Positions 1 through 43,597 of a DNA stretch of 50,146 nucleotides are shown here, in pieces. The notes beneath the pieces were generated by a model, which saw only the letters and a list, made by a program, of their open reading frames with translations, did not search any database and was not told the origin of the DNA. Source of the DNA: Vicinamibacteria bacterium (GTDB lineage Bacteria; Acidobacteriota; Vicinamibacteria; Fen-336; JAGNNV01); the NCBI GenBank assembly GCA_035432945.1, contig DAORUA010000001.1:3500-53645 (forward strand). Reading direction: 5' to 3'. Each line of letters begins with the position of its first letter. The first letter of the stretch is position 1. A program made the translations under genes and the position numbers.

Positions 1-2027
1 ATCGTGGAATTCAGCACCAACGGGGGGGCGAGCTGGTCGAACGCCTCCGCGTTGGTGCTGTATTCCACGATGCCGCCGTCGTAGTTGATCGAGACGCCGC
101 TGTCGAAGCCGTAGGAGTGATTGAACTGGAGGAGCGCCCCCGAGGGGATCGTCGGGAGGTTGGCCGCGAGGGCGATGCGGGCATCCGCTACCGCGTCGCG
201 GTCGTAGCCCCAGAGGCTGTCGACTCCGGTGGTGGCGTACGCTGCGCCGCCCAGAACATTGTTCGGGTCGCTCGTCCTGGACCACCATCCCTTGGTGGGG
301 GGATTGGGCGAAGCCGGTTCCGAAATCGTCCAGTTGCCGAGGCCGCTCTCAAAACTGTCGAAGAAGAGGTTGGCCGGGGCCTGGCCCGCCGGGCACAGGG
401 CGGGGGGCGTGGCCTGGGTGGGAGAGCACGGCCACGTGTTGGCCATCTGCACCGCGTTCAGGGCCTTGGAGACCTCCGCGCAGTTGCCCGCGGTGATTCC
501 GGCGGTGCCGATCAGGTCGGTGCAGGCCTGCTGCAGCGCCACGTAGTTGTCGAGGAAATCGGAGGCGGAGGTCAGGTACTGGGTGAGCGCGCGGTACTGG
601 ATCTTCGCGGCCTTGGTGAGGCCGATGCCGGTCACGGTGATGCTGTTGTACCCGCCGCCGTCGACCATCAGGGCGTACGCGTGATTGGGGACGCCGCTGT
701 TGGTGTGGACGCCGCCCGCGTCCTCGCCTGCGGGGTCGATATCGCAACGGAACTGGCTGTCCGACATCTTCCCGGGGTCCCCCTTGAGGGTCGGCGTCAT
801 CATGTTCCGAACGCCGCCGGCGACGAGTTCCTCGCCAACGAGCCACCTCGATCCGCCGGGCTCCGAGTTTCCGTTCGACAGGTCGACGCTCTCCCCGAAG
901 ATGTCCGAGAACGACTCGTTCAAAGCGCCCGATTGCATGTAATAGAAGAGATTGGCGGTTCTCTCCGTCACCGCGTGGGTGAGCTCGTGGGCCACCACGT
1001 CGTCGGCCTGGGGGAAGCCGGCGCCGTAGACCATCTGGCTGCCGTTCCAGAACGCGTTGTCGTACGGGCACGCGCCCTCGCAGTAGTTGATGGTCGATAC
1101 GATCTGCCCGCCGGCGTTGTCGAAACTGTCCCGGCCGAAGTTCGTGAAGTAGAAGTCGTAGGTATCGCCCGCGTAGTCGTAGGCCTTGTCGGCGTCGGAA
1201 TTGCCGGTGAGGCCGCCTCCTTCCGAGCGCATCAGCGTCCCCGGAAGCGCGCTGGCGCCGTTCCCGTTGTAGACGGAGCGGTTCTTCGCGTCGGTGAGCT
1301 GGGAGAAGTCGAGGAGAACCATCCGGCTGCGCGCGTCGATCCAGATGAACTGGCGGAGCCTCGGTCCCGAAGCCTCCACGAACCAGGCGAGGCGGGTCGG
1401 GAAGTCGCGGCCGCCCAGGAGGGCCTGGTTGAGGATCTCGAGCCGCGGTTCACCGAAGCGGGCGTCTGGAGCATTGAACTTCCGGGTCACGAAGGAGCGG
1501 GCGGCGGAGAGCGCGTCGAGCGCGGTGACCGTGGGGTCGAGGCTGACCGAATCGAGGTCATCGAGGGTCTTCCCGTTCGCGGCCAGGACCCGGTCCCCCC
1601 GCAGGTGCACAACCAGTTCCCCGCCGGCGACCGGAATGCCCGAGCGGACCTGCCGCATGCGGACGTGATCCATGCCGAGCGCGTCCCGGTTCACCCGGCC
1701 GATCCTGACGTCGTCGCGTCCGCGCAAGCCGAAGGCCTCGCCGTAGGAGGCGACGAAGGACGCGGCCCGGTCCGCCGGGGCGGGTGCTAGACGGTCGGGG
1801 ACGGGAATCGAACGCCCCCGGGGGGCGGAGAGGAACGTGGCGAGCCCGGTCCGGGTCGACCGGGTGACCTGGATGTCCGCCCCCGTGGCCAGGGACATGG
1901 CCCGGATCGCGGCCTCGGACCTCGGCTCCTGCGCGCGGGCCTGCGCGCCCAGGGTGCACAGAAGTACTGCGCCCAGGGCCACGAGGGCGCGCGCCGATCC
2001 TCGACCGACGTTGTCCTTGCTGCTCAT
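1..2027 (-). CDS. Secreted M4 (thermolysin-like) zinc metalloprotease preproenzyme; 3' end runs off the left edge
   Basis: Absent from the ORF track because there is no stop inside the window. My minus-strand translation from ATG 2027..2025 stays open to position 1. It starts with the signal peptide MSSKDNVGRGSARALVALGAVLLCTLGAQA, followed by a propeptide. It then shows VVAHELTHAVTE (HELTH = 975..989), GALNESFSDIFGE and GGVHTNSGVPNHAY, the three thermolysin-family active-site blocks. An extra C-terminal domain (FFDSFESGLGNW...) follows the catalytic core. Confidence 0.9.
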   Translation of the reverse strand, partial: MSSKDNVGRGSARALVALGAVLLCTLGAQARAQEPRSEAAIRAMSLATGADIQVTRSTRTGLATFLSAPRGRSIPVPDRLAPAPADRAASFVASYGEAFGLRGRDDVRIGRVNRDALGMDHVRMRQVRSGIPVAGGELVVHLRGDRVLAANGKTLDDLDSVSLDPTVTALDALSAARSFVTRKFNAPDARFGEPRLEILNQALLGGRDFPTRLAWFVEASGPRLRQFIWIDARSRMVLLDFSQLTDAKNRSVYNGNGASALPGTLMRSEGGGLTGNSDADKAYDYAGDTYDFYFTNFGRDSFDNAGGQIVSTINYCEGACPYDNAFWNGSQMVYGAGFPQADDVVAHELTHAVTERTANLFYYMQSGALNESFSDIFGESVDLSNGNSEPGGSRWLVGEELVAGGVRNMMTPTLKGDPGKMSDSQFRCDIDPAGEDAGGVHTNSGVPNHAYALMVDGGGYNSITVTGIGLTKAAKIQYRALTQYLTSASDFLDNYVALQQACTDLIGTAGITAGNCAEVSKALNAVQMANTWPCSPTQATPPALCPAGQAPANLFFDSFESGLGNWTISEPASPNPPTKGWWSRTSDPNNVLGGAAYATTGVDSLWGYDRDAVADARIALAANLPTIPSGALLQFNHSYGFDSGVSINYDGGIVEYSTNAEAFDQLAPPLVLNST

Positions 2028-2103: not shown

Positions 2104-3558
2104 TCACCAGATATTCGCCGACCCGACCACCTTCCAGACCGGGTCGGTCGCGGTGAAGGGCAGGAACGAGCCGGCCCCGTTCTTCGTGGTCCCGTTCATG
2201 AACCAGACCGAGAAGATGCCGGTGGGCGTGGGGTTGTGCCAGAGGAGATCCGGGAGACCATCGTTGTTGAAGTCGGTCCTGGTCGAGACCAGCGTGTACG
2301 CGGGATTCGTGACCTGGGCGTCGGGGTAGTTGATCGTGCCCGTCACCGCGACCCCCGCGACATTCCAGGCCTGGATCTGGCCGGTGGCGGAGTTGTACAG
2401 GACGAGTTCGTCGTCGCCGTCGTTGTTGGCGTCCGCGGCGGCCACCACGCGCACCGTCCCCGCCCCGGGGAGCAGGGTGGTGATGTCGTACTGGCCGAGC
2501 AGGGTCGCGTTGTCGTGCTGCATCACCCGCACCACCCCGGTGGCCGAGTTGTAGAAGGCGATGTCCTGGGTGCCGTTGCCGTCGGCGTCGAAGGCGGTGG
2601 CGACCCTCCACGGCGGGCCCAGGGTGTAGGGCAGGAACTGGAAGCCCTTGAGATTGTCGCCGTCGATGTACCAGAAGAGCAGCCGGCCGTCGTTCACGTT
2701 GTGCCAGAGGTAGTCGAGCTGGCCGTCCTGATCGAAGTCGGCCACCGCGCCCACCGTCCAGCCGGGGTCGGTGGCCCACGGGGTGACCCAGTTGAAGGTG
2801 TCGAGAGTGTTGCCGCCGGTCATGTGCCACCGGTACAGGCGGTTGGTGACGAAGTTGTGGAACATGAGACGGGACCTTCCGGTGGTGCCGTCGGTGTTGG
2901 TGATGGTGCCCTGGGCCGCTCCGTCGCCGATGGACGCGGTTCCAGTGGGATTCGAGAGATTGACGAAGAAGGTCTCGTACGGCTCCTGGGCGGCGTCGCC
3001 TACGATCTGCACGGTGACCGTCTTGGTCTGCTCGCCCGTGTTGAAGGTGACCGTGCCGTTCGTGGCGGTGTAGTCGCCGGGGGCGGTGGCGCTGCCGTCG
3101 GCGGTCGCGTAGTCGACGGTCACGGCCGCGGGAGCGGGCGCGCTCAGGGTGACCTTGAAGTCGATGGGCGTGAACCCGGCGTTGCCTTCGCCCGAGGTCT
3201 TGTCGGCGATGGAGACGCGGAGACCGTCGTCGGCCTGGATGGTGCCGGTGCCCTGGCTGTCGAAGATCGTGGCCTCGGTGGCGTTCGCGAGATTCAGGAA
3301 CACGGTTTCGTCGGGCTCGATCGCGGCGTCGGGGGAGATGGGCACGGAGACCGTCTTCGAGGCGGCGCCGGGGACGAAGGTGAGGGTTCCGTTCGTGGCG
3401 GTGTAGTCGGTTCCCGCGGTGGCCGTTCCGTTCGCGGTCGCGTAGTCCACGGTGATGGTGTAGATGGAGGTGGCGGAGAGGACCACCGTGAAGTTCAGGC
3501 TCGGCGGCGCGCCTCCCGTGCCCTCGACCACGAGGGCGTTGGTGACGCTGATCGAGGA
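2104..3558 (-). repeat. Copy A of a 1455-nt dispersed direct repeat (2 Calx-beta repeats plus the FG-GAP tail coding block)
   Basis: It aligns gap-free with 5312..6766 at a constant offset of 3208 nt. A 48-nt stretch, 2821..2868, is identical to 6029..6076. Confidence 0.9.
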
Positions 3559-5217
3559 GTCGTCGTTGTTGATGACGCCCACGCCCTGCGCGTCGCCGAG
3601 GATCGCGTTGGTGGGAGCGGAGAGGTTCACGTAGTAGGTCTCGTTGGCCTCGAGGGCGAGGTCGCTGATGACCGGCACCGTGAACGTCCGGGTGGTGACT
3701 CCGGGGGCGAAGGTCAGGGTCGTGGGCCCGGTGGCGGTGTAGTCCGAGCCCGCGGTGGCGGTGTTGTTGGCGGTGGCCGCGGAGACGGTGACGGTGAGGG
3801 CGCTCGGGGCGTTCAGGCTGACCGTGAAGTTGGCGTTGATGACGCCCGAGTTGCCTTCGGTCAACACCACGTCGTTGACCGAGACCGTGGTCACCGCGTC
3901 GCTGATCGTCACCTGGAGCTGATAACCCTGCGCGTTGTTGACCGCGCCCGCGAAGGCGCGGATGAAGAAGGTGCCCGCGCCGGGCAGGATGGTGGCGGGA
4001 ATGTTCTCGGCCACCCCCGCGCCCCCCGCGTTGGCGAAGGCGAGGATGGTGCTTCCGTCCGTGCCCCTCAGTTCGACCGCGAGATCGTTCACCGCGAGCG
4101 CGTTGAAGCTCACACCCGCGCTGCACGAGCCGTCGCCGTTCTGGGGTCCGGCGAGGTAGGTCGAGCCCACGGGGGTGACCGCGACCGCGGCCTTTTTTCC
4201 CGCGGGCACCGTGAACTTGTAGAAGTCGACATCGGCGTCATCGTCGGCGGAAAGATCACTGATGGTGGTCGTCCCATTGCCGAGCGCGCCGAGGTTCGAG
4301 GCGGTGCCGGAGGTTTCGTTGTTCTCCTTGTCGTCGCCGTATCCGCGCCAGCCCGCGAGCTTGTCGTCGAGCTGCGCGTGGGTGAACGCAGTGGCCAGAA
4401 CGGGTTCCATGAGCTTGGTGTTGTTCATGGGGCACGAGTGCTGGAACCCGAGGCCGTGGCCGTGCTCGTGGGCGATGATGTTGCGCAGGCCGAGCGACCC
4501 ATTGGCGAGGCCGCCGCCCGGATTGGAGTAGTAGCTGTCGCCGGTGTCGATCACCATGTCGCCGACTTCGGGATAGTAGTTGTAGGCGAGGACGTTGAAG
4601 TTGCCGTCGATGAAGTGACCGCCGATGCGCACGTCGGCGCGCGTGTTCAGAACGCCGGGATTGAATGGAAAGGCGCCGCCGTTCGCGAGCAGGGCGCTGT
4701 CGTCGTAGTTCACCTTGACGTAGGTAACGCCGGTGATCGCGCCCCAGGTGTCGAACACGGTCTGGAAGTGCGCGGTCCAGGCCGCCTCGCTGCCATAGAT
4801 GCCGGTGAGGAAAGCCCGGAGGTTGCTGGGGGCGTTCGTCTCCGACGCGTGGCCCGCGGTCGCATTCATGGGAGTGCCGTCGGGCACGATGTTCCAGGTC
4901 AGGGTCGTGACCTGTCCCTGGACGAGGCCGCCGCCGTCCGTCGCGGTGGCGTCCCAGCGGAAGGAGTCGGGGAACTGGAAGGAGGGGCCCTGCAGGCTGG
5001 AGAAGAGATTCTGTTCCCGCGCGTATTGCTCGAGGACCTCCCGCCTGGTTCCGGGGGCGAAGCAGGCCACCGGCGGGATGGCGCGGCGAATGCCGGCCTG
5101 GCCGGGAGAAGGCGCGCTGGAAGGCGCGGGCGAGAGGTTCCCGCGCCGGGTCGCGGACGCCGCCGTGATCGCCGCGATGGCCAACGAAAGCCAGACCGAA
5201 CTGCGGATGCGCTTCAT
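2104..5217 (-). CDS. Secreted metzincin-type zinc protease fused to a PPC-like module, 3 Calx-beta repeats and a C-terminal FG-GAP/VCBS propeller
   Basis: ORF track, 1037 aa. Signal peptide MKRIRSSVWLSLAIAAITAASA, with GGAGGA 5 nt upstream of ATG 5217. The zinc site HEHGHGLGFQH lies at 4438..4470, followed by DVDFYKFTVPAG (pre-peptidase C-terminal-like). Three Calx-beta repeats follow (..DYxxxxGTxTFxPG..EPxETF..). The FG-GAP-type repeats are DFDQDGQLDYLWHN, DADGNGTQDIAFYN, DANNDGDDELVLYN and DFNNDGLPDLLWHN. Confidence 0.9.
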   Translation of the reverse strand: MKRIRSSVWLSLAIAAITAASATRRGNLSPAPSSAPSPGQAGIRRAIPPVACFAPGTRREVLEQYAREQNLFSSLQGPSFQFPDSFRWDATATDGGGLVQGQVTTLTWNIVPDGTPMNATAGHASETNAPSNLRAFLTGIYGSEAAWTAHFQTVFDTWGAITGVTYVKVNYDDSALLANGGAFPFNPGVLNTRADVRIGGHFIDGNFNVLAYNYYPEVGDMVIDTGDSYYSNPGGGLANGSLGLRNIIAHEHGHGLGFQHSCPMNNTKLMEPVLATAFTHAQLDDKLAGWRGYGDDKENNETSGTASNLGALGNGTTTISDLSADDDADVDFYKFTVPAGKKAAVAVTPVGSTYLAGPQNGDGSCSAGVSFNALAVNDLAVELRGTDGSTILAFANAGGAGVAENIPATILPGAGTFFIRAFAGAVNNAQGYQLQVTISDAVTTVSVNDVVLTEGNSGVINANFTVSLNAPSALTVTVSAATANNTATAGSDYTATGPTTLTFAPGVTTRTFTVPVISDLALEANETYYVNLSAPTNAILGDAQGVGVINNDDSSISVTNALVVEGTGGAPPSLNFTVVLSATSIYTITVDYATANGTATAGTDYTATNGTLTFVPGAASKTVSVPISPDAAIEPDETVFLNLANATEATIFDSQGTGTIQADDGLRVSIADKTSGEGNAGFTPIDFKVTLSAPAPAAVTVDYATADGSATAPGDYTATNGTVTFNTGEQTKTVTVQIVGDAAQEPYETFFVNLSNPTGTASIGDGAAQGTITNTDGTTGRSRLMFHNFVTNRLYRWHMTGGNTLDTFNWVTPWATDPGWTVGAVADFDQDGQLDYLWHNVNDGRLLFWYIDGDNLKGFQFLPYTLGPPWRVATAFDADGNGTQDIAFYNSATGVVRVMQHDNATLLGQYDITTLLPGAGTVRVVAAADANNDGDDELVLYNSATGQIQAWNVAGVAVTGTINYPDAQVTNPAYTLVSTRTDFNNDGLPDLLWHNPTPTGIFSVWFMNGTTKNGAGSFLPFTATDPVWKVVGSANIW
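2890..3885 (-). repeat. Three tandem Calx-beta coding repeats (about 330 nt each)
   Basis: These correspond to aa 445..776 of the 1037-aa protein. Each repeat has the (V/I)S(V/I)...EG...F.V.LS....V.V.YAT..GTA....DY....GT(L/V)TF..G....T..V....D...EP.ETF pattern. Confidence 0.8.
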
Positions 5218-5311
5218 CGCTTCCTCCAGGGGACACTGCAGCGCGACCCCGACGCGGTGTCGCGACTTTTCGAAATGGTATCAGGAGCCCGGCCGGGGCG
5301 GCGGGCCTCGG

Positions 5312-6766
5312 CTACCAGACGTTGGCGGACCCGACGACCCTCCACACCGGATCGGTGGCGGTGAAGGGCTGGAAGACACCGGTGCCGAGCCTCGTGGTCC
5401 CGTTCATGAACCACACCGAGAAGATGCCGGTGGGGGTGGGGTTGTGCCAGAGGAAGTCGGCGAGGCCGTCGTTGTTGAAGTCCGTCTTCGTGGAGACGAG
5501 GGTGAACGAGGGCGACGTGGCTTGTGTGTTGGCGTACGTGGTCGTGCTCGTGACATTCGCGCCGGTCACGTCCCAGGCCTGAACGTGTCCGGTGGCGGAG
5601 TTGTAGAGGGCGAGTTCATCGTCGCCGTCGTTGTTCGCATCGACGGCGGCAACCACGCGGACAGTGCCCGTGCCGGGCAGAAGCGTGGTGAGGTCGTACT
5701 GACCGAGCAGAGTCGCATTGTCGTGCCGCATCACGCGCACCACCCCGGTGGCGGAGTTGTAGAAGACGAGGTCGGGCGTGCCGTTGCCGTCGGCATCGAA
5801 GGTGGTGGCCACGGTCCAGGGCGGACCCATCTGGTAGGGCAGGAACTGATAGCCCTTGAGGTTGTCGCCGTCGATGTACCAGAAGAGCATGCGGCCATCG
5901 TTCAGGTTGTGCCAGAGGTAATCGAGCTGGCCGTCCTGGTCGAAATCGGCCACCGCGCCCACGGTCCAGCCGGGGTCGGTGGCCCACGGGGTCACCCAGT
6001 TGAAGGTGTCGAGAGTGTTGCCGTTCTTCATGTGCCACCGGTACAGGCGGTTGGTGACGAAGTTGTGGAACATGAGGCGGGAGCGATCGGTGGCGCCGTC
6101 GGTGTTCGTGATGGTGCCCTGGCCGCGGCCGTCTCCGATGTTGGCCCCGCCGGTGGGGTTGGAGAGATCCACGAAGAACGTCTCGTAGGGCTCCTTCTCC
6201 GTGTCGCCGACGACCTGAATCGTGACGGTCTTGGTCTGCTCGCCCGTATTGAAGGTGACCGTGCCGTTGGCGGCGGTGTAGTCGAGGGGGGCGGTGGCGG
6301 TGCCGTCGGCGGTCGCATAATCGACGGTGACCGTGCCCGGGGCGGGAGCGGACAGGCTGACCGTGAAGGTCACGGGAGTGAATCCGGTGTCACCTTCGGG
6401 AGTGGTCTTGTCGCCTATGGATACCAGCAGCCCATCGTCGGCGAGGATCGTGCCGACACCCTGGCCGTCGAAGATCGTGGCTCCCACCGCGTTCGAGAGA
6501 TTCAGCAGGACGGTCTCGTTCGGCTCCACAACGGCGTCCGGAATGATCGGGACCTGCACGACGAGAGAGGCCACGCCAGGCGGGAAGGAAAGAGTTCCCG
6601 AGACCGGCGTGTAGTCCGACCCCGCGGTTGCCGTGCCACTGGCCGTGGCATAGTCGACCGTCACCGTGGAGGTCGAGGTCGCCGAGAGAATGACGGTGAA
6701 GGCGAGCTTGTTGGGTGTGCCAGTGGTGCCCTCGGCGATCGCGAAATCGGTAACGGAGATGGTGGA
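5312..6766 (-). repeat. Copy B of the 1455-nt dispersed direct repeat
   Basis: See copy A. By hand count, the last 257 aa show 43 differences, about 83% identity. Confidence 0.9.
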
Positions 6767-9700
6767 GAGGTCGTCGTTGAGAATGGTGCCGGTGGCGGTG
6801 CCCTGCCCGGGGGCGATCGTTGCGCCGGTGGGTGAGGAGAGGGTGACCGTGAACGTTTCGTTCGGTTCGGCGATCGCGTCGCCGATGATCTGGACGAGCA
6901 CGAACTTCTCGAAATCTCCGATCCCGAAGCTGAGCTGACCGGAGGTGCTGGTGAAATCCGCGCCCGGCGTGGCCGTGCCCGCGGCGGTCGCGTAGTTCAC
7001 GGTGACGGGCGCGGTGGCAGGCCGGGAGAGGCGGACGGGGAAGGCCAGCGTGCTGCCCGCGAGGTAGCCCTCGGGCCCACGAGCACTGGAGATTCCGATC
7101 GAGGTGGGATCGAGACTGTCGTCGTCGATGATGGCGCCGAGAGCCTCGATGTCACCTGGTCCGGCGCCCGAGAGCGCGGACAGCGTGACCTTGAAGTACT
7201 CCGTCGGTTCGACTGACGTGTCCCCGATGACGTCGACGTTGATAGTCTTCGATACCTCGCCGGGAGCGAACGTGATCGTGCCGCTCACGGGCGTGTAGTC
7301 GACGTTTGACGTGGCGTTGACGTCGCTGGTCGCGAACAAGGCCGTGACCGTATCGGTGGAGGGGCCGGACAGCGTCACCGCGAACGACGCGGTCGCTATG
7401 CTCGAGGAGCCTTCGAGCACGGACGTGTTCGCGATCGCCATCGATGGAAACGTGGGGATCAGTCGAAGTTGCTGGGGTGCGGCAGCATGGCGGCTGTCGC
7501 CGGCCTGTGACACCCGTATTCCGCAAAGGCCGGATGCACCCGCGAGTACCCGCACACGATTTCCTGCGACTACGCAGGTTGAAGGGGTCCAAGTGTCGAA
7601 TTCGGGAGGCAGACCGCTGCTTGCAGACGCGCGCAGAATCGTGGTGATTCCCTCGGCCAGTTGAGTTGGTGCTTCGAACTGGATCGATTGGCCGAAGTGA
7701 ATGACGACGGGTGCGCGGCGAGACGAAGAGGTTTCATCCCCCAGCTCGCCGTAGCCGTTGTAGCCCCAGCACTGGAGACCACCGCCCACGGTAATTGCGC
7801 AGGTGTGATAGCCGCCCGTCGATACGAGGGCTGCATTGCTCGTGAGACCGACGACATCCGTCGGTGTCAGTTGCTGAGTTCCCGTGCCGTCCCCGATCTG
7901 ACCATCAGCATTCCAGCCCCAGCACTTGAGTCGGCCGGTGTTGGTAACCGCGCAGGTGTGGAACTTGCCGGCCGCGATGCTCGTCACGCCGCTTGCGAGG
8001 CCTACCACGTCCGTTGGGGTGAGCCGCGTTGTCGTGGTCCCGTCTCCGATCTGACCGCCCGCGTTCAAGCCCCAGCATTTCACGCCGCCCGCGGTGGTCA
8101 GCGCGCAGGTGTGCTGCGCGCCCGCAACGATCGCCTTGACGCCGCTCGTGAGCCCGGCCGCGTCCCCCGGAATCACGCGTTGCGTCGTCGTCCCGTCACC
8201 CAGTTTTCCGTTCAGATTGCTGCCCCAGCACTTTGCCCCGCCGGCCGTGGTCAGGGCGCAGGTGTGAAAGTCGCCCGCGGTGACGGCCGCGGCGACGGAA
8301 AGACCATACACCAGGCCCGGAGTCGACTCGAGTGTCGTGACAAAGCCGTTTCCCAACTGACCGTTTTGGTTGTTGCCCCAGCATCTCAAACCCCCGCTCT
8401 TTGTGATTGCGCAAGTGTGATAGAGCCCCGCCGAGATCTGGGAGGCATCGCTCATCTGAACAACCGCTACCGGCACGGTTCGGGACGTTACGGAATTGTC
8501 ACCGAGCGCGGCCAGTCCGTTGTACCCCCAGCACTTTGGGGGGCCGGTCGCGGTGACCGCGCACGTGTGATAGCCCCCGGCCGAAACCTGAACGACGCCG
8601 CTCGAAAGGCCAACGACCTCCATTGGAACCCCACGACTGGTCTGCGTGCCATCTCCGAGCTCTCCGTCAAGATTGTTGCCCCAGCACTGGACCGTACCGC
8701 CGCGGGTCGCGGCGCAGGTGTGATAGAGCCCGGTCGAGACCAGGGACACGCCACTTGCGAGTCCAGCCACGTCCGAGGGAGTGGGGCGCGACGTCGTGGT
8801 ACCGTTGCCGAGCTGGCCATCCAGGTTGCGTCCCCAGCACTTGAGTCCGCCGTCAACGGCCAGGGCACAGGTATGCGACACTCCCGCGAAGACCTCCGAC
8901 ACCGGGGTGCCCAGACCCCGAACGGTTGTTGCCGAATGCCGCTCAACCTGGGTTCCGTCGCCCAATTCACCGTCCACGTTCCGGCCCCAGCATTTGATGC
9001 CGCCCCAGTCGGTAACAGCGCACGAATGACCTTCTCCCGATGCGAGGCGCGCCGCTCCGGTGACACCGATGACATCGACAGGGCTTAGCCGAGTGAGTGT
9101 AGTCTCGTCGCCGAGTTGTCCCCAGAGGTTATTTCCCCAGCACTTGACCCTCCCGGACGCAACGATTGCGCAAGTGTGCAACGATCCTGCCTGCACTGCA
9201 GTGACTCCGGTCAGGCCGCTGACTTGGATCGGTCCGGAACGAACGCCGGTCGTACCATCGCCCACCTGCCCATAGACGTTCCAACCCCAGCACCTCACGG
9301 TTCCTTCCAACATCAAGGCGCAGGTGTGAGTACCGCCGGCGGTTATCGCGATCACTCCGGCCTCGAGACCGGGAACCTGCAGCGGCGTCATCCCTGACCC
9401 CGTCATGCCGTCGACCTGACCATAGGTATTGTCGCCCCAGCATTTGACCGCCCCCTGGGCGGTCAGGGCGCAAGAGTGAGAAGAGCCCGTGGCAATCGCC
9501 GATACGCCGCTCGCGAGTCCTTCGACCATCACTGGAATTGACTCCCACGCGCTGGTGATGCCGTTCCCGAGTTGCCCATAGACGTTTTCTCCCCAGCATT
9601 TCACGCCTCCAGAGGAAGACAATGCACAGCTATGGAATCTTCGCGCCGCAAGTGCGACCACGTCAGTCGACAATCCAGGAAAGTCGAGCGGCGTCAAAGC

Positions 9701-10681
9701 GGGGGAGGCCGACACCTGATGGTTCGTGCCCCAGCACTTCACACTCCCACGACTAGTCAGCGCGCAACTCCCTGACGCCGCCAAGGCCACGCCTGTCGTC
9801 GTTGCATTCAGCAGAGTGGGAGTCGCCGGTGCGACGGAGGCATTGAAGAGAACCGGGCTTCCGGAAAGACCCGGGGCCGTGGCCGAGAGGGTGTTGTTCC
9901 CGAAGCCCTCCTCGTTTCCGAGAATCCAGGCGCCGACCCGGGCCACGCCCGACAGGTCCGTGTCCTGGGCCTCATCGACGACGAACCCTCCACCGGTCTC
10001 GACCGCGAAGGTCACGCTGACCCCGGGGACGGGCAACCCGGTCTGGTCTCGAACCACAACCGCGGGGGCGATGGGAACAAAGGACCCCTTGGCTGCGACC
10101 TGACCGTCACCTTGGTAGGCCGAAACCTGAGTCGGGGTGGTCAAGTAGTTGTACCGGATCGATCCAAACAGGGCGGCCTGCCCTCCTTCGCAGTGCTGCT
10201 CAAAGTCCGCGGCAAACGTCAGGACAGATCCGTCGTTCGCGTAGGTTGCTTCGAAAACGACGAAGCGACCAGTGAGCGTATTGCAGCCGCGACCGTCACC
10301 GTACAAAGCCAGGCCAGGGTTCGAGATGCTCTCGAACGGGTAACGCGTAGCCCCTTCGTACACCCCAGCGGTGAGCGGTGCATTGTTGGGCGCGGCGAGG
10401 TCCAGATACCACCAAGTGGCTAAGCCGGGGGCGATGACGGAGAAGGAGACGCCGTTCTTGTTGTTGCGCGACGGAGTGAAGGTCGCGCCAGTCGGATCGA
10501 GGGTCCGCTGCTGTCCTTGACCGATGTAGTCGCCGGACTGACTGTTCAGGAACAGCAGGGTGGACGTCTGTTGAGCAAGAGCCGAGTAGGCGGAGGACGC
10601 CCAGAGAAGAGCGGCGACGACAACTAGCCTAAGTGCCTTCAACCCAGGGACCCTCCCCTTGAAGTGCGCGATCGGACTCAT
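5312..10681 (-). CDS. Giant secreted RCC1-repeat protein (14 blades) with a Big_1-like Ig domain, 4 Calx-beta repeats and a C-terminal FG-GAP/VCBS propeller
   Basis: ORF track, 1789 aa. It starts with a signal peptide (..LLWASSAYSALAQQ), an N-terminal beta-rich domain and a Big_1-like domain (VVVRDQTGLPVPGVSVTF). Fourteen repeats of about 52 aa follow, each with H(T/S)CA...(K/R/Q)CWGxN..G(Q/E)(L/I)GDG. Then come an Ig-like spacer, four Calx-beta repeats, and a tail that aligns gap-free with the tail of 2104..5217. Confidence 0.9.
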   Translation of the reverse strand: MSPIAHFKGRVPGLKALRLVVVAALLWASSAYSALAQQTSTLLFLNSQSGDYIGQGQQRTLDPTGATFTPSRNNKNGVSFSVIAPGLATWWYLDLAAPNNAPLTAGVYEGATRYPFESISNPGLALYGDGRGCNTLTGRFVVFEATYANDGSVLTFAADFEQHCEGGQAALFGSIRYNYLTTPTQVSAYQGDGQVAAKGSFVPIAPAVVVRDQTGLPVPGVSVTFAVETGGGFVVDEAQDTDLSGVARVGAWILGNEEGFGNNTLSATAPGLSGSPVLFNASVAPATPTLLNATTTGVALAASGSCALTSRGSVKCWGTNHQVSASPALTPLDFPGLSTDVVALAARRFHSCALSSSGGVKCWGENVYGQLGNGITSAWESIPVMVEGLASGVSAIATGSSHSCALTAQGAVKCWGDNTYGQVDGMTGSGMTPLQVPGLEAGVIAITAGGTHTCALMLEGTVRCWGWNVYGQVGDGTTGVRSGPIQVSGLTGVTAVQAGSLHTCAIVASGRVKCWGNNLWGQLGDETTLTRLSPVDVIGVTGAARLASGEGHSCAVTDWGGIKCWGRNVDGELGDGTQVERHSATTVRGLGTPVSEVFAGVSHTCALAVDGGLKCWGRNLDGQLGNGTTTSRPTPSDVAGLASGVSLVSTGLYHTCAATRGGTVQCWGNNLDGELGDGTQTSRGVPMEVVGLSSGVVQVSAGGYHTCAVTATGPPKCWGYNGLAALGDNSVTSRTVPVAVVQMSDASQISAGLYHTCAITKSGGLRCWGNNQNGQLGNGFVTTLESTPGLVYGLSVAAAVTAGDFHTCALTTAGGAKCWGSNLNGKLGDGTTTQRVIPGDAAGLTSGVKAIVAGAQHTCALTTAGGVKCWGLNAGGQIGDGTTTTRLTPTDVVGLASGVTSIAAGKFHTCAVTNTGRLKCWGWNADGQIGDGTGTQQLTPTDVVGLTSNAALVSTGGYHTCAITVGGGLQCWGYNGYGELGDETSSSRRAPVVIHFGQSIQFEAPTQLAEGITTILRASASSGLPPEFDTWTPSTCVVAGNRVRVLAGASGLCGIRVSQAGDSRHAAAPQQLRLIPTFPSMAIANTSVLEGSSSIATASFAVTLSGPSTDTVTALFATSDVNATSNVDYTPVSGTITFAPGEVSKTINVDVIGDTSVEPTEYFKVTLSALSGAGPGDIEALGAIIDDDSLDPTSIGISSARGPEGYLAGSTLAFPVRLSRPATAPVTVNYATAAGTATPGADFTSTSGQLSFGIGDFEKFVLVQIIGDAIAEPNETFTVTLSSPTGATIAPGQGTATGTILNDDLSTISVTDFAIAEGTTGTPNKLAFTVILSATSTSTVTVDYATASGTATAGSDYTPVSGTLSFPPGVASLVVQVPIIPDAVVEPNETVLLNLSNAVGATIFDGQGVGTILADDGLLVSIGDKTTPEGDTGFTPVTFTVSLSAPAPGTVTVDYATADGTATAPLDYTAANGTVTFNTGEQTKTVTIQVVGDTEKEPYETFFVDLSNPTGGANIGDGRGQGTITNTDGATDRSRLMFHNFVTNRLYRWHMKNGNTLDTFNWVTPWATDPGWTVGAVADFDQDGQLDYLWHNLNDGRMLFWYIDGDNLKGYQFLPYQMGPPWTVATTFDADGNGTPDLVFYNSATGVVRVMRHDNATLLGQYDLTTLLPGTGTVRVVAAVDANNDGDDELALYNSATGHVQAWDVTGANVTSTTTYANTQATSPSFTLVSTKTDFNNDGLADFLWHNPTPTGIFSVWFMNGTTRLGTGVFQPFTATDPVWRVVGSANVW
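6098..7441 (-). repeat. Four tandem Calx-beta coding repeats
   Basis: These correspond to aa 1081..1528 of the 1789-aa protein and show the same pattern as 2890..3885. Confidence 0.8.
7712..9784 (-). repeat. Tandem coding array of 14 RCC1-type blades (period about 150-156 nt)
   Basis: The plus strand shows a recurring ccccagca(c/t) motif, the reverse complement of the CWG codons. It appears near 7766, 7915, 8063, 8221, 8375, 8525, 8675, 8830, 8985, 9135, 9285, 9435, 9590 and 9725. Confidence 0.85.
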
Positions 10682-10753: not shown

Positions 10754-12352
10754 CTAGAACGTCCGCGTTGACGAGGCGGGCGCCTCTTCCTCCCAGCCTC
10801 CCGGGGCCGACTCGAACTCCGCCGGCTGGAAGTACCTCGAACTCGCCATGTGGATCCCGCTGGCGCGCCGGGTCCGATGCAGCGTGGCGCCGGTTGCTCC
10901 CTCGATTACGTCCTTCATCGCGACGGCATCACCGTCCAAAGTCACAGTCCGGACGAGACGAGCTGAAGCCTTGACCCGGTTTCCCATCAGCCTTCGCACC
11001 ACGATCTTGCGGAAGAGATCGCCGATCCATTGCACGCGAAGAACCGTGGAATTGAGAATGCGCAGCGCGACCATCTGGTAGGTCTTGAGGTCCTCGTGGA
11101 GGGAGAGGAAGAAATCCGCTTCCACCGCGATCTCGCCGTCGGTCACGCTCTTCGCTCGACCGGCCGCGGGTACGCGTGTGACGTAACGTCTGCCGCCCTC
11201 CAGAAGCAGATAGCCGCCGTCCTCACCCGTGAGTCTCCAGGCGCCGTCAGGGTTCCGTCGGTACACGACCACCGCCCCCCCGAGGCCCGACGCCACGTAG
11301 ACCGCGCGGTTCGGGGTCCGTCGCACGAAGATTCCCGCGTTAGGAAAGTCGAGGCGCTCCGGCTGTGCCAAAACCATGGGCGTCGTGATCGGCTGTGCCG
11401 CGACCACGTCCGCGGCCTCGCGCGCATCGTCGCCCAGCCGGATCGCGTTGCCGAAGTCGAGGCTCGAAGGCAGCGGCACGAGGCCCTCATCCCAGGCCTT
11501 CTGAATCCGCGCGGCGAGCGGCGCGAAGCGCGCATCGCGCCGGGCCGCGACCTCGAACGAGTAGGGATAAATGAGAGCGGTGGAACGGCATCCGAGCAGG
11601 GGATTGATCGTCCCGTCCGGCATCACGATCGCGTCCATGAACTCCATCGCCTTGTCGACCGCGGGCCAGAGATTCAGGTCGGGATAGAGCAGCCCCGCTT
11701 TAGTCAAGTAGCGGAGCGTGCGTGTCTGGTAGCCGGCATCGGGGCCGTGATACTCCCGGAACCACCCTTCGGTCTTGTCGAACCACGAGAGTGTCCGCGC
11801 CACATACTCGCGGCCGCGGGCCTCGGCGGGCGCGTCGCTGAATGCCTTCGCGTAATGGAGCAGCTCGTACCCATACTGCGCGATGTGATTCGCGACCTCG
11901 CCATGCTTCTCGTCCGTGCGGAGAAGGAAGACGACGCCGCGCCGGATGATGCCTTCGAGTTGCAGGGCCGCCGCTTTCGACAGCAGGCCCGAGCCGTGGA
12001 GATCCACCAGCGTCGCCAGGAAGTCGAAGAAGACACCCGGCGACTTTTCGTGCGGGTAACACTGATCGAAGCTCCCGTCGCCCCACTGGATCCGGCCCAG
12101 GTAACGCACGGTCGCGTCCAGCCACGGCCGGATCGCGTCGAGGCCGCCGCTGCGCCGCGCGTAGGCGATCGCGAGATTGAGGCCGTACTGCATGGTGGAG
12201 TCGGAGAAGTCCTTGTACTTCCAGCCCCAGTACGGACGGTCCATCGACCCATACGACGGCGAGCCGGGATCGCGGTTCCAGGCGGAGAGAACCTGCCGGG
12301 CCACGATCCGGAACTCGCGCTCGTAGGGGTTCGTGGGTGGAGGCAGTGTCAT
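10754..12352 (-). CDS. Hypothetical protein with a helical-toroid-like N-half and a beta-rich C-half (polysaccharide lyase/epimerase-like layout; function unknown)
   Basis: The track gives 10754..12757, but the first 135 codons are an Arg-rich alternate frame of the upstream gene. ATG 12352..12350 overlaps the upstream TGA 12351..12349 (ATGA). The protein starts MTLPPPTNPYEREF and contains WGWKYKDFSDSTMQYGLNLAIAY and GDGSFDQCYPHEK. I recognised no catalytic motif. Confidence 0.7.
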   Translation of the reverse strand: MTLPPPTNPYEREFRIVARQVLSAWNRDPGSPSYGSMDRPYWGWKYKDFSDSTMQYGLNLAIAYARRSGGLDAIRPWLDATVRYLGRIQWGDGSFDQCYPHEKSPGVFFDFLATLVDLHGSGLLSKAAALQLEGIIRRGVVFLLRTDEKHGEVANHIAQYGYELLHYAKAFSDAPAEARGREYVARTLSWFDKTEGWFREYHGPDAGYQTRTLRYLTKAGLLYPDLNLWPAVDKAMEFMDAIVMPDGTINPLLGCRSTALIYPYSFEVAARRDARFAPLAARIQKAWDEGLVPLPSSLDFGNAIRLGDDAREAADVVAAQPITTPMVLAQPERLDFPNAGIFVRRTPNRAVYVASGLGGAVVVYRRNPDGAWRLTGEDGGYLLLEGGRRYVTRVPAAGRAKSVTDGEIAVEADFFLSLHEDLKTYQMVALRILNSTVLRVQWIGDLFRKIVVRRLMGNRVKASARLVRTVTLDGDAVAMKDVIEGATGATLHRTRRASGIHMASSRYFQPAEFESAPGGWEEEAPASSTRTF

Positions 12353-13401
12353 CCGAGTTTCCTGACCAGGGGCGAGGTGAGTGCGGCCCACAGCGGCGCC
12401 GGAAGCCGTCGTCCCACGCCACGGGCCAGAGAATACAGGCCGGAACTCGAATCGTTGCGCTCCTCGTTCGATGCGGGGATCGAGAGAACGGTGGTGAGCG
12501 ACTGGGTGGCGCCCCACTTCTTCTTGAAGGCGAGGAGGCTCTCCTGCTTCGGGGAGTCGCTGCCGAAATCGAAGGAGTGCGCGCCTGAGCGCTCGGCCTC
12601 GCGCAGCGCCTCGAAGAGCATCAGGTCGTTGGCGCGCATTTCCTGCCCCAGAGGCGTCGACGCGGAGTAGCCGTACACGTAGCGATCGGCGAACGCGAAG
12701 AAGAGGCCCCCCGCCACCGGTCCCTTTGGGCTCAGGATCACGAGGAAGCGCGCCCACTCGCGTCCTTCATCGAGCATGGCCTCGAAGAGCGCGCGCGGGA
12801 ACACGGGGACGCCGAGACGCGACTGGGTCGAGAGATGGAGCTGGTGCCAGGTCTCCGCGTGCTCGGGGCCGCGGCGCCATTCGAAGGTGAGCGCGTTTCG
12901 CTCCGCCTGCCTAACCATGTTCCGGTTCTTCTTGCCCACCCGGTTCCACAGGTCGCCCTGCTGCAGGGGCATGACGCTGTGGACCCAGTACTTCGAGACC
13001 GAGAAGCCCTCCGCTCGCGCGATGCCTTCGTTGACCTGGGCGCAGGACTTGAGGACGACGCTCGAGGCCCCGGTTTCCGCCATCGCCTGGCGCGCCGCGA
13101 CGTAGGCCGCGCGTTCGGTCTCGGGGCTCGTGGCGAGGACGCCGCCGCGGTCGCGGAAGGGGACGCCGACCAGGCGGCGGGACGCGAGACCCTTCACTTC
13201 GAAGAGCGGGACCGCCGCGACGATCCGGCCATCGGCCTCGCGTAGGGCGAGGCCCCTGGCGGCGTAGCCGAGGCCCCGCTTCAGGACGCGGGCCCAGTCG
13301 GAGAGATGGTAGATCGAGGCATCGGGATGACGCCTCACGAACTCATCCCAATCCTTCCAGTCCTGGTCGGAAACGGGCGAGGTCGCTCGAAGGCCGCTCA
13401 T
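12349..13401 (-). CDS. FemAB-like / GNAT-fold (Acetyltransf_6-type) transferase
   Basis: ORF track, 350 aa. The C-terminal half shows YVYGYSASTPLGQEMRANDLMLFEALREAERSGAHSFDFGSDSPKQESLLAFKKKWGA, typical of FemAB-related proteins found in exopolysaccharide loci. Its ATG overlaps the upstream stop (ATGA at 13398..13401). Confidence 0.8.
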   Translation of the reverse strand: MSGLRATSPVSDQDWKDWDEFVRRHPDASIYHLSDWARVLKRGLGYAARGLALREADGRIVAAVPLFEVKGLASRRLVGVPFRDRGGVLATSPETERAAYVAARQAMAETGASSVVLKSCAQVNEGIARAEGFSVSKYWVHSVMPLQQGDLWNRVGKKNRNMVRQAERNALTFEWRRGPEHAETWHQLHLSTQSRLGVPVFPRALFEAMLDEGREWARFLVILSPKGPVAGGLFFAFADRYVYGYSASTPLGQEMRANDLMLFEALREAERSGAHSFDFGSDSPKQESLLAFKKKWGATQSLTTVLSIPASNEERNDSSSGLYSLARGVGRRLPAPLWAALTSPLVRKLG

Positions 13402-14699
13402 CGGGCGCCCATCACTTCGAGCATTTCCTCGAAGCCGCTCTGCCAGCCGTAGTCCGTGGAGAGGGTGTGGGGGTGCCAGAGGATCGCGGCCTCGCCGCCC
13501 ACCGCGCGCACCTCGTCGATGAAGTGTCGAAGGCGCGAGCCCCGGGCCGAGGGATCGAGCTCCGCATAGTCGTACAGGTGCGAGTCCATGACCATCAAAG
13601 GGAGGACCTCGAGCCTGTGGGGCTCACCGGCCTTCGCGTTCCAGGGGCGGTGGCGCAGGGCCGCGCTCACCCGGAACCCGGGCCGATCGTTGAAGCCCAG
13701 GGTCGAATCGAGGGAGAAGCCCGCCTGCTCCTGGGCCGCCCAGGTGTGTGTCCACGAGAATCGCATCCAGTGCTGGCGGCACGCGCGCACCTCGCCGGAC
13801 ACGAGCTTGCCCACCGCCGCTCGCTCCTCCCCCAGGCGCGTCGCGTCGTTCCACGAGGAGTAGGACGGATGGACGCCGACTTCGTGACCGCGCGCGACAA
13901 GGCCGCGCAGCCGCCCGCCAAGGCCCGGCGTGTCAAGCGGGTAGCCGGGATCGAGCAGCGCGTCCACCGGACCCCGCCACCCGCGACGGGCGTGGATGAA
14001 GAAGAGGCTGCGATGGCCGGCGGCCTCGACCGCGTTCGCGACCTCGTCGATCCGGTCATAGGTGCCCGAGCCGAACGCGAAGGACGCCGCCGAGGCCGCG
14101 ACGCCGCGGGCACGCCGAAGTTCGCCCCGGATCGACAGTCGCAGCGCCCTGAAGCCACGGAAGGCTGACTGCTTGAACCGGATCGCCAGGGTCTTCGCCA
14201 GTGCGTCGACATCGTGAGTCAGGAGGATCCGGCCGGTGGGGCGAGGGCCGAAGAGTTCGGTCTCGTCGCGTCCCGACTCTCTGGCCGCCCACCGCCGCAG
14301 GAACAGCGCGATGCGATTGACCCACGCGTGTTCGAACGCGCGCGGATCGAGGGGGCCGAGGCGATAGGAATACGAGTGGATCGGGCCGTGAGCGTTCTCG
14401 TGCGCGCGCTCGGCCGAGCCGGAGAGATACCAGGCCGCCGCGGTCCACCAGTCGATGGCGCGCCACCCTTCGCCCGGCTCCGCCGCTTCGGCGCCCATCG
14501 CCAAGGCGGGGACGAGCAGCATCCCGTCAACCCCGCAATCCCGCGCCCAGGGGGGAAGGCGCACTTCGACCAACTCCGCCAGCGTCGATGTCCGCCCGGG
14601 AGCGGTCGGCATGGTCAGCGCCTCGATCGCGGACGGATTGTCCGGCCAGTAACCCGAGAGCGCGCGAGCGGCCCAGGTGTCAGGGGCGGCTTTGGTCAT
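13398..14699 (-). CDS. Polysaccharide deacetylase-like (CE4-type) protein with an N-terminal extension of about 150 aa
   Basis: ORF track, 433 aa. The motif RILLTHDVDAL resembles the CE4 Asp-Asp metal-binding motif, and GHEVGVHPSY and WHPH are His-containing blocks. It overlaps both neighbours, by 4 nt downstream and 20 nt upstream. Confidence 0.7.
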   Translation of the reverse strand: MTKAAPDTWAARALSGYWPDNPSAIEALTMPTAPGRTSTLAELVEVRLPPWARDCGVDGMLLVPALAMGAEAAEPGEGWRAIDWWTAAAWYLSGSAERAHENAHGPIHSYSYRLGPLDPRAFEHAWVNRIALFLRRWAARESGRDETELFGPRPTGRILLTHDVDALAKTLAIRFKQSAFRGFRALRLSIRGELRRARGVAASAASFAFGSGTYDRIDEVANAVEAAGHRSLFFIHARRGWRGPVDALLDPGYPLDTPGLGGRLRGLVARGHEVGVHPSYSSWNDATRLGEERAAVGKLVSGEVRACRQHWMRFSWTHTWAAQEQAGFSLDSTLGFNDRPGFRVSAALRHRPWNAKAGEPHRLEVLPLMVMDSHLYDYAELDPSARGSRLRHFIDEVRAVGGEAAILWHPHTLSTDYGWQSGFEEMLEVMGAR

Positions 14700-16605: not shown

Positions 16606-16611
16606 GACCGG

Positions 16612-17412
16612 TTACCTCGCCGCCCGGGTCTCGGCCGCGGCCGACCGGTAACGCGCGTTGGTGCGCCATCCGCCCCAGGGCCAGTGGTACAGCAGGGCCA
16701 TGGTGAGGTAGCCCACGGTGGTGAGGCTCGAGATCATCTTCGAGGCGGAAAGCTTGCGATCGTACCGGAGCACGAAGGGCACCTCGGCGAAGCGCGCCCC
16801 GAGCATGCGGAGCTTGACCAGCTTTTCGAGGGTGCAGGTGAAGCCGAGGCCCTTGAGCTGGATGAAGTCGTTCCCGAAGACCCGGATCGCCCTTCGCACG
16901 ATGCCGGCGCGGTAGGCCCGGAAGCCGCACGAGTATTCCTGCACTCCCGAGATGGGGAAGAGGATCTTCATGAAGAGGTTGGCCCCGCGGCTCACGAAGG
17001 CGCGATAGGCGTTCACGCCCTTCTGCCCGCCGCCCTCCTGGAAGCGCGAGGCGATGACCACGTCGTAACCCTCGTCCAGCTTCTTCTTCATCAGGTGCAT
17101 GAAGGAGGGGTCATGGGTGTCGTCGCAGTCCATGCGGATGATGATGTCGTCGTCCTTCAGAAGGTCGGCCGCGCGCTCGAAGAGGTCGCGGCTCGCCTCG
17201 CCCAGGCCCCGGTTGAGCTTGTGAGTGATGACTTCGAGCCGCACCTTCGCGGGGTAGGCCGCGAGGACCTGGGCGGTCTTGTCGTTGCTCCCGTCGTCGC
17301 AGACCACGATCGCGCCTTCGCCGCCCTCTTCCGCGAAGAACTGCTCGATCTTGGGAAGGAGGATGGGCAGGCTCTCTTCCTCGTTGTAGGCGGGCAGGAG
17401 GACGACGATCAT
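16612..17412 (-). CDS. GT2 glycosyltransferase, DPM1/polyprenyl-phosphate sugar synthase-like
   Basis: The track ORF 16612..18237 is over-extended into the alternate frame of the upstream AsnB. The real start is ATG 17412..17410, which shares one base with the upstream TGA (TGATG). The protein starts MIVVLLPAYNEEESLP and contains VVCDDGSNDKT and RMDCDDTHDP (DxD). Confidence 0.85.
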   Translation of the reverse strand: MIVVLLPAYNEEESLPILLPKIEQFFAEEGGEGAIVVCDDGSNDKTAQVLAAYPAKVRLEVITHKLNRGLGEASRDLFERAADLLKDDDIIIRMDCDDTHDPSFMHLMKKKLDEGYDVVIASRFQEGGGQKGVNAYRAFVSRGANLFMKILFPISGVQEYSCGFRAYRAGIVRRAIRVFGNDFIQLKGLGFTCTLEKLVKLRMLGARFAEVPFVLRYDRKLSASKMISSLTTVGYLTMALLYHWPWGGWRTNARYRSAAAETRAAR

Positions 17413-19403: not shown

Positions 19404-19406
19404 GGC

Positions 19407-23870: not shown

Positions 23871-23959
23871 CGCTTGAGTCTTCTCCGAGTCCGGCCGGAG
23901 CCCGCGGAGGAACGCTCTGATCCTCCCGCCCGCGGTGTGGCCTCCGCCGATCTGGAACC

Positions 23960-26359: not shown

Positions 26360-26362
26360 CTT

Positions 26363-29002: not shown

Positions 29003-29047
29003 GGTATTTCCAGACGCAAGGCTTATGGTGGCCGGCTATTTTCGCAC

Positions 29048-29067
29048 AGGGGCTGGAGGAGGCCCCT
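29048..29067 (-). promoter_or_regulatory. Intercistronic hairpin in one of the two gaps over 70 bp within the glycan operon
   Basis: The sequence is aggggc-tggaggag-gcccct (6-bp stem, 8-nt loop) and starts 9 nt after the GT4 stop on the minus strand. No U-tract follows. A comparable imperfect hairpin (GGAGGA/TCCTCC) lies at 23904..23929 in the other gap. Confidence 0.35.
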
Positions 29068-29075
29068 TCAAGAGG

Positions 29076-30245: not shown

Positions 30246-30253
30246 GGGTGTCT

Positions 30254-41034: not shown

Positions 41035-41056
41035 GAGGGTCTCCTCGCGGCTGAAT

Positions 41057-42307: not shown

Positions 42308-42309
42308 GG

Positions 42310-43551: not shown

Positions 43552-43597
43552 CAGGTGCGCTCCTTGACGAAGACCGGGCCGGCGGGAGGCTTGGGCC

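Follow-up and report, generated by a model that had tools for sequence, protein, structure and literature searches.

A propeller cassette at the C-terminus of secreted proteins with unrelated heads in Vicinamibacteria

The shared cassette and its described counterparts

One logic, in which a constant module is joined to variable heads, is common to SLH domains, the dockerins of cellulosomal enzymes and the C-terminal domains of the type IX secretion system (T9SS). In the biofilm adhesins Bap1 and RbmC of Vibrio cholerae the shared module is an FG-GAP propeller with velcro closure, which directly binds the exopolysaccharide of the cell itself (PMC10102183, PMC3161981); the domains facing the environment differ, and the arrangement has been described as "double-sided tape" (PMC10102183). 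The CWB2 proteins of C. difficile possess a common anchor that binds PSII, a polysaccharide polymer of the cell wall for which a synthesis locus was proposed in the same study (PMC4973711). The C-terminal beta-propeller lectins of UmbA, found in Streptomyces umbrella toxin particles, bind a bacterial cell-surface glycopolymer (PDB 9oee; PMC13274773). Through analysis of a 50,146-nt stretch of Vicinamibacteria (Acidobacteriota) DNA, a C-terminal cassette has been identified that defines a lineage-specific family of Sec-exported extracellular multi-domain proteins; the whole stretch is called the window, and all bare coordinates refer to it. The cassette is a propeller of five FG-GAP-type repeats with four calcium loops, placed behind a variable run of Calx-beta domains. 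This multigene family is real, well defined and previously undescribed. The principle of a shared anchor with variable heads is already known, and Bap1/RbmC (PMC10102183) and the CWB2 proteins (PMC4973711) are precedents that correct an earlier note on this DNA, in which constant-tail, variable-head logic was taken to be undescribed.

The window contains three genes of the family, named A, B and C (Table 1), and each of the encoded proteins begins with a signal peptide (Sec-type in A and B). Genes A and B are real genes, as judged from codon-position GC (GC3 0.93 and 0.78), and both gene calls recur in two near-identical public contigs (L011 and L012). According to the earlier note, the two proteins align without gaps over their last 485 aa, with 43 differences in the final 257 aa, both close with VVGSAN(I/V)W and a stop, and the N-terminal parts are unrelated. 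Recounting bears this out in full. Aligned from the C-terminus, 377 of the 485 gap-free positions are identical (77.7%), as are 214 of the last 257 (83.3%), leaving exactly 43 differences, and the terminal motif and stop are present in both. Beyond about 485 aa from the C-terminus the gapless identity drops to background; with four gaps, BLASTP extends the match to 577 aa (72% identity, E = 0). The similarity is far beyond chance, and at the DNA level the shared region forms a 1.24-kb direct repeat of about 82% identity. For the heads (A residues 1-440 against B residues 1-1080), BLASTP gave no match better than E = 0.07.

The domain orders of both proteins are listed in Table 1. In Pfam searches, Calx-beta (PF03160) scored 163.5 bits in A (three copies) and 235.8 bits in B (four copies), with a gathering cut-off of 27, while FG-GAP (PF01839) and FG-GAP_3 (PF13517) reached 36.3 and 36.4 bits in A and 34.4 and 36.5 bits in B, with gathering cut-offs of 22.1 and 26.9, respectively. 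The last two Calx-beta domains of each protein fall within the gap-free shared 485 aa (2107-3561 in A, 5315-6769 in B). Among the head domains named in the earlier note, two are supported by Pfam: the metzincin of A, with a Peptidase_M10 match of 29.3 bits (cut-off 24), and the 14 RCC1 repeats of B, which correspond to two propellers. PPC in A (17.4 bits, cut-off 25.9) and Big_1 in B (22.8 bits, cut-off 34.9) are weak matches below their cut-offs.

Gene C, absent from the list of the earlier note, is the third gene of the cassette family and lies directly downstream of A. Its frame opens at position 2027, 76 nt past the stop codon of A and on the same strand, and runs to the window edge (GC3 0.89). 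Contig L011, which is 99.86% identical to the window, extends the gene to at least 1894 aa, comprising successively an M4 domain, a MAM-like domain, two Calx-beta domains, a Kelch propeller, an fn3-like domain and four further Calx-beta domains, after which the protein runs into the shared tail (...DRSRLMFHNFVTNRLYRWHMKNGNTLDT) precisely at the contig end. The ortholog in the metagenome-assembled genome (MAG) SSF20 (L001 1861-8241) has a complete tail. Since gene C on L011 enters the same tail, at least three genes stand in tandem (B, A and C in this order, all on the minus strand), and the window covers the beginning of their array.

Anatomy, distribution and evolution of the tail

The 257-aa tail is built of five FG-GAP-type repeats of about 50 aa, with the pattern [DxDxDGxxD]-hhW(H/Y)N-x3-G-hxhW-.... 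Four DxDxDGxxD loops, at tail positions 47, 97, 149 and 202, are read in both A and B, and from their sequence these loops would be expected to bind calcium. An AlphaFold2 model of the tail (pLDDT 81, pTM 0.81) contains 20 strands, arranged as five times four. The chain starts just past, and ends just before, the expected site of a fifth calcium loop. As the chain ends flank this missing site, the tail would have the velcro arrangement of a closed propeller, with RLMFHN from the N-terminal end and VWKVVGS from the C-terminal end as adjacent strands of one blade; closure of this type would require the tail to be terminal, with a conserved end. The question raised in the earlier note, whether the tail is a closed propeller, is thus answered in part: the five-by-four propeller is predicted by the model, and its closure into a five-bladed ring is what we infer from the position of the chain ends. 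In a Foldseek search of PDB structures the best match was the C-terminal propeller lectin of UmbA4 with teichuronic acid (9oee_A; E 7e-7, TM 0.59, 14% identity), followed by integrin alpha propellers.

The search for further tail-bearing open reading frames (ORFs) that had been proposed in the earlier note was performed as a scan of species-representative genomes together with local tblastn and contig look-ups. Tail matches in the scan and in tblastn were confined to MAGs of Vicinamibacteria. At least ten tail genes are present in MAG SSF20 and five in genome J, and others were found in MAGs Go_SlAct_bin_43 and SOY_65. On SSF20 contig 244 four of them lie in a row: an A-like fragment, a gene with M4 and Kelch domains, an M10-like gene with a P-domain and about nine Calx-beta domains, and a BNR/sortilin gene with a P-domain. 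Contig 64 of the same MAG carries three tail genes (a fragment, a head of unknown type and ELWxxDGT repeats), contig 31 a 3118-aa protein with DUF5122, cadherin-like and Ig domains, contig 86 the B ortholog and after it another RCC1 gene that runs off the contig, and contig 91 a BNR/sortilin gene. In genome J (a 120.7-kb JGI contig) the five genes stand in a row, with RCC1, RCC1, M4+Kelch, M4+MAM+fn3 and M10 heads. Further representatives add heads with NHL, with M4+BNR+Big_3_5, with MAM and an array of about 25 fn3 domains, an FG-GAP-rich head and two of unknown type.

Across the relatives the cassette is therefore a constant unit fused to differing heads, occurring in at least ten genes of one MAG and with at least 13 head architectures overall. 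The head classes are M10-like and M4 proteases; RCC1, Kelch, NHL, DUF5122 and BNR/sortilin propellers; ELWxxDGT repeats; fn3 arrays; and unknown types. Two findings that the earlier note had named as fatal to the cassette idea, a tail limited to A and B and a single head accompanying all homologous tails, are both contradicted by these counts. The 257-aa unit is always the extreme C-terminus of the protein and directly follows at least one Calx-beta domain (range 1-9, usually 2-9). The Calx-beta run is better seen as a stalk of variable length (1-9 domains), the invariant unit being the 257-aa propeller, usually with the last two Calx-beta domains.

An exhaustive profile search matched 48,692 FG-GAP representatives, mostly generic multi-repeat proteins; as the search was swamped by these, the size of the family is a lower bound. 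The single-stretch, extreme C-terminal form is rare, with about 13 cluster representatives (again a lower bound) among the best 150 of the 48,692 profile matches, and it is these matches alone that truly belong to the family. A word-indexed protein search with the tail returned 19 matches, which are uninformative on the heads because nearly all of them are N-terminally truncated fragments. A Verrucomicrobiales match (L009, 30% identity) is a generic FG-GAP protein and was placed outside the family. NCBIfam contains no curated model for the tail, and its "sodium/calcium exchanger" and "SVAGG GlyGly-CTERM" matches, far under cut-off, reflect Calx-beta similarity only. No paper on the tail was found in the literature on Calx-beta and FG-GAP in Acidobacteria or on Calx-beta in Vicinamibacter.

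Public short-read contigs repeatedly stop within the tail (the end of L011; protein fragments P0001-P0017). Assemblies break at the repeated tail; as a consequence, most copies in the databases lack their N-terminal part and are annotated as hypothetical, VCBS or Calx-beta proteins, and cassette genes are systematically truncated in public metagenome data. Among the heads, one of about 350-460 aa, with the sequence PLFP(G/A)DNWWNLDITNAP(V/I)DSNSAAFI..., is conserved in L005 1960-5145 and L008 3-3110 (75% identity between the two MAGs); it gave no Pfam or NCBIfam match and is possibly a novel domain with an enzymatic or binding role.

No other part of these proteins is as constrained as the propeller, which is under strong purifying selection. 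The dN/dS of the tail is 0.19 between A and B and 0.05-0.10 between orthologs, compared with 0.12-0.26 between orthologs for the adjoining Calx-beta domains, and the tail of B is 93% identical to that of its SSF20 ortholog, whereas the heads are only 54% identical. In addition, the tails cluster by genome and not by head, which indicates gene conversion. Three tails of genome J are 89-98% identical to one another but share only 70-78% identity with the tails behind orthologous heads in other genomes, and between the M4+Kelch and M4+MAM genes of this genome the tails share 97% identity and the heads 34%. Conversely, S64_2 and SOY_1 have heads of 75% and tails of 55% identity, and SOY_1 and SOY_2 have unrelated heads and tails of 82% identity. 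All these are aligned identities; gapless paralog identities that break at small indels (e.g., SOY_1 vs SOY_2) were set aside.

Putative conversion tracts are visible at the nucleotide level as well. Two neighbouring genes with unrelated heads on SSF20 contig 64 (L005 4201-5145 and 9351-10295) are identical over the last 945 nt and then diverge abruptly, which reflects either a very recent gene conversion or assembly collapse of a repeat. The dS between A and B is 0.52, no greater than between orthologs (0.63-0.66), and DNA identity amounts to 91-92% in the stretch that lies 180-270 aa before the end; together these values suggest a partial conversion tract between the two tails. At least three tail types can be distinguished: type I, ending in ...VVGSANxW; type II, in ...LVGAATLW; and type III, in ...VVGAANVW. 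Types I and II are both present in genome J, and some members carry one additional residue (P or Q) after the terminal W. The M10-head member of genome J (L010 15094-19455) consists of three consecutive ORFs (442, 505 and 526 aa) and has a divergent type II tail, its neighbours being of type I; it is either a frameshifted pseudogene or the product of sequencing errors.

Comparison with described systems and putative function of the tail

Lacking the defining features tested, the cassette falls outside the Bap1/RbmC, CWB2, dockerin, SLH and T9SS families. It plausibly works like Bap1 and RbmC, which are likewise secreted paralogs with a conserved (about 70% identical) FG-GAP-repeat propeller and differing environment-facing domains. 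However, there are major differences. The Bap1/RbmC propeller has eight blades, a beta-prism insertion and a non-terminal position, in contrast to the five repeats, 20 predicted strands, uninterrupted structure and terminal position of the tail; Bap1 and RbmC have no Calx-beta stalk; they are two paralogs, whereas the tail family comprises at least ten copies and at least 13 heads, proteases included; and they belong to Gammaproteobacteria, whereas the tail family belongs to Acidobacteriota. Binding of exopolysaccharide has been demonstrated for Bap1/RbmC and is putative for the tail. Bap1 was found neither among the PDB sequences matched by the tail profile at E <= 10 nor among the best 50 Foldseek PDB matches, its presence in these libraries being unconfirmed.

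The UmbA lectins resemble the tail as C-terminal propellers with conserved calcium-type loops, and occur in five-, six- and seven-bladed versions. UmbA, however, shows the opposite pattern to the tail family, with a diversified propeller behind a constant N-terminal trypsin-like domain; the ligand is located on foreign cells, and the similarity to the tail is limited to the values given above. The CWB2 proteins share with the tail family the many paralogs per genome, a single non-covalent anchor (putative in the case of the tail) and varied heads including proteases. The CWB2, SLH and dockerin folds are nevertheless unrelated to the tail, and the envelope is monoderm, as opposed to the diderm envelope expected for Acidobacteriota. 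A dockerin/cohesin system was rejected, with no Pfam match to the duplicated F-hand module of Dockerin_1.

Like the tail, the T9SS C-terminal domain of Bacteroidota is an extreme C-terminal module on unrelated secreted proteins with Sec signals. That domain is a beta-sandwich of about 80-100 aa, whereas the tail is a 257-aa calcium-loop propeller, and the T9SS models (Por_Secre_tail, TIGR04183 and relatives) gave no Pfam or NCBIfam match in A, B or the isolated tail. A 16-bit NCBIfam match to an FG-GAP-containing T9SS protein was dismissed as chance-level. PEP-CTERM was also rejected: A and B end in a beta-strand (...PVWKVVGSANIW) and have no PEP motif and no hydrophobic helix. The polarity of polymorphic toxins is reversed here (variable N-terminus, constant C-terminus), and no immunity-like small ORF was found in the 72-94-nt gaps between the genes. 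Homology to the FG-GAP/VCBS repeats of integrin alpha and CRTAC1, with their DxDxDGxxD calcium loops, is supported by the Pfam cut-offs passed, by CRTAC1 as the sole PDB sequence match and by integrin alpha among the fold matches. Those propellers have seven or eight blades and do not form terminal cassettes, in contrast to the five repeats of the terminal tail.

In the preferred reading, which we rate at about an even chance, the propeller would be a binding module common to the family, with the polysaccharide produced by the neighbouring gene cluster as its most probable target and the Calx-beta run as a calcium-stiffened spacer. After Sec export the propeller would bind one shared ligand, most likely the envelope or matrix polysaccharide of the same cell. 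All heads would thereby be retained and presented at the surface or in the matrix of the cell, following the double-sided tape logic of V. cholerae Bap1/RbmC. Recombination between tails keeps the copies of one genome alike and moves the cassette between genes. The genomic linkage itself is observed. AsnB, deacetylase-like and FemAB-like genes and a gene for a conserved 532-aa protein precede the array in the window, in SSF20 and in genome J, and the last of these genes also adjoins the tail-gene array in SOY_65. The glycan operon that the earlier note had placed upstream of the tail genes therefore recurs beside them: three genomes have the whole flank, and a fourth has a single gene of the cluster there.

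Several points weigh against binding to the cell's own polysaccharide. In the AlphaFold2 model the pLDDT is only 54-68 in the first ~40 and last ~20 residues, the least confident parts, and the UmbA4 match is at the level of the fold only (TM 0.59, 14% identity). The sequence search of PDB gave no solved homolog except CRTAC1 (E = 0.0024), and glycan binding and surface retention are suggested by genomic context and analogy. Members L002, L006 and L007 have no adjoining polysaccharide genes. The 532-aa gene is 85% identical between the window and SOY_65 but the tails only about 55%, so that the tail type does not visibly track this flanking gene. Moreover, gene conversion among tandem repeats occurs regardless of a shared ligand.

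A lectin or carbohydrate-binding-type module for outside targets (soil or plant polymers, or the glycans of other microbes), by which the heads would be delivered, is unlikely. It is favoured by the UmbA4 propeller lectin, the best structural match, which binds a foreign cell-surface glycopolymer (PMC13274773), and by the many degradative heads (three metalloprotease architecture classes and the BNR/sortilin type), the members located away from any glycan cluster and the occurrence of more than one tail type in one genome. Umbrella toxins, however, diversify the lectin, whereas here the tail is the most conserved and homogenised part, which better fits one constant ligand; the main array is linked to a polysaccharide cluster of the producer; and many heads are themselves binding propellers (RCC1, Kelch, NHL) that would be the outward-facing side. 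It is distinctly unlikely that the tail docks on another protein, such as a cohesin-like scaffold, an S-layer or a protein of the outer membrane, or associates with itself to build a dockerin-like surface complex, as the surroundings of the arrays showed no conserved gene for a candidate partner with repeated receptor modules and Pfam and NCBIfam gave no dockerin, cohesin or SLH signal. Such docking would nonetheless agree with the dockerin pattern of a constant calcium-dependent C-terminal module on many enzyme heads, with homogenisation within a genome, which would keep the copies matched to one partner, and with the common role of propellers as protein-interaction platforms.

A C-terminal secretion or sorting signal, read and possibly cleaved by an outer-membrane export or attachment machine in the manner of the T9SS domain, would explain why the tail is common to many cargo types, always at the extreme C-terminus, and ends in a conserved motif (VVGSANxW) with a terminal aromatic residue. 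We regard it as very improbable. With 257 aa, four calcium loops and strong propeller repeats the tail is far larger than known sorting signals, its terminal position would be accounted for structurally by velcro closure, and some members extend one residue past the W. No curated sorting-domain model was matched, and genes of a secretion system are not regular neighbours of the tail genes; the MacAB-like set (41-45.6 kb) lies at a distance of about 30 kb. A plain local duplication that gave A and B, with the chance exchange of one head, would agree with their adjacency and with the direct repeat that they share. This proposal is refuted by the number of head architectures (at least 13), of copies in one genome (at least ten) and of tail subtypes (at least three), as well as by the strong purifying selection on the tail and the repeated conversion tracts.

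A tentative extension of the own-polysaccharide reading, possible but doubtful, is that the tail acts as a genome-specific "glycan zip-code" addressing surface enzymes and binders to the strain-specific polysaccharide of their own cell, with gene conversion keeping the copies matched. If this were true, types I and II in genome J would address different polymers or layers; a surface-display system that had escaped notice would have come to light in a soil phylum that is abundant but little studied, and the cassette would be a portable tag for display. Vicinamibacteria are abundant in soil, few of them have been brought into culture, and to our knowledge hardly anything has been described of how their cell surface and matrix are organised. 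The cassette marks a dozen or more large secreted proteins per genome and gives a handle on the surface or matrix proteome, the set being retrievable with a hidden Markov model of the tail; it could also be put to use as a tag for display. These proteins would carry the double-sided tape principle from two Vibrio adhesins to a large multi-head family, which is also a clear case of concerted evolution of one domain within otherwise unrelated genes.

Polysaccharide cluster and genomic context

Table 1. Features of the window, listed in order of position within each gene
Feature	Position	Strand	Remarks
Gene C, 5' part	3..2027	-	675 aa, cut by window edge; signal peptide, FTP/M4 thermolysin-like protease head
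Gene A (ORF A)	2104..5217	-	1037 aa; GC3 0.93; same call in contigs L011, L012; order: Sec signal peptide, M10-like metzincin, weak PPC, 3 Calx-beta, C-terminal propeller tail
Propeller tail of A	2107..2877	-	residues 781-1037; ends VVGSANIW
Calx-beta stalk of A	2878..3897	-	~residues 441-780, 3 domains
M10-like metzincin catalytic domain of A	4369..4776	-	Pfam
Zinc motif HEHGHGLGFQH of A	4438-4470	-	A residues 250-260, within Peptidase_M10 match
Gene B (ORF B)	5312..10681	-	1789 aa; GC3 0.78; same call in contigs L011, L012; order: Sec signal peptide, N-terminal domain, weak Big_1, 14 RCC1, 4 Calx-beta, C-terminal propeller tail
Propeller tail of B	5315..6085	-	residues 1533-1789; 83.3% identical to A tail; ends VVGSANVW
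Calx-beta stalk of B	6086..7441	-	~residues 1081-1532, 4 domains
RCC1 region of B	7637..9811 (approximate bounds)	-	14 RCC1_2 repeats, Pfam
532-aa gene	10754..12352	-	conserved, unknown function; immediately upstream of B; last gene of polysaccharide cluster; also adjoins the tail-gene array in MAG SSF20, genome J and MAG SOY_65
Polysaccharide biosynthesis/export cluster	12349..31297	-	upstream of array

The polysaccharide cluster encodes a FemAB-like acyltransferase, a VimE-like deacetylase, AsnB-type amidotransferases, a GT2 glycosyltransferase, a Wzt/Wzm ABC exporter, a heparinase II/III-like protein, GT4 glycosyltransferases and an oxidoreductase, and further AsnB copies are found up to position 40253. 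In total at least four AsnB-type paralogs are present within 12349-40253, mostly on the minus strand (14680-16605, 17412-19403, 38403-40253 and 34559-37279); the copy at 34559-37279 lies on the plus strand and possesses an N-terminal extension of about 330 aa. The AsnB, FemAB-like and VimE-like genes resemble XrtA/PEP-CTERM-associated exopolysaccharide loci and 2,3-diacetamido-uronic acid pathways, with all scores under the NCBIfam cut-offs. Among the window genes scanned, no Pfam match to an exosortase was obtained.

ARAGORN predicted a tRNA-Asp of 92 nt (5828-5919, plus strand) opposite the tail-coding part of B. The call was rejected as spurious; it is almost certainly a false positive, being over-long and located inside a well-supported coding region. 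The promoter and terminator scan gave nothing exceeding the shuffled expectation.

Additional genes accompany the arrays in the related genomes. In SSF20 (contig 244) a 739-aa membrane protein with a Wzy_C domain of the O-antigen ligase/polymerase type (L003 2126-4342) is encoded between two cassette genes within the array, which adds to the linkage with polysaccharide genes; it could be a polymerase or an O-oligosaccharyltransferase acting on cassette proteins. Immediately after the arrays of SSF20 (L003 10815-12710) and genome J (L010 19527-22309) come radical-SAM/SPASM and methyltransferase genes. In the window, a MacAB-type efflux set about 30 kb from the array (40285-45603, minus strand) comprises a YknW-like membrane protein, two MacB/FtsX permeases, an ABC ATPase and a MacA/HlyD-type adaptor.

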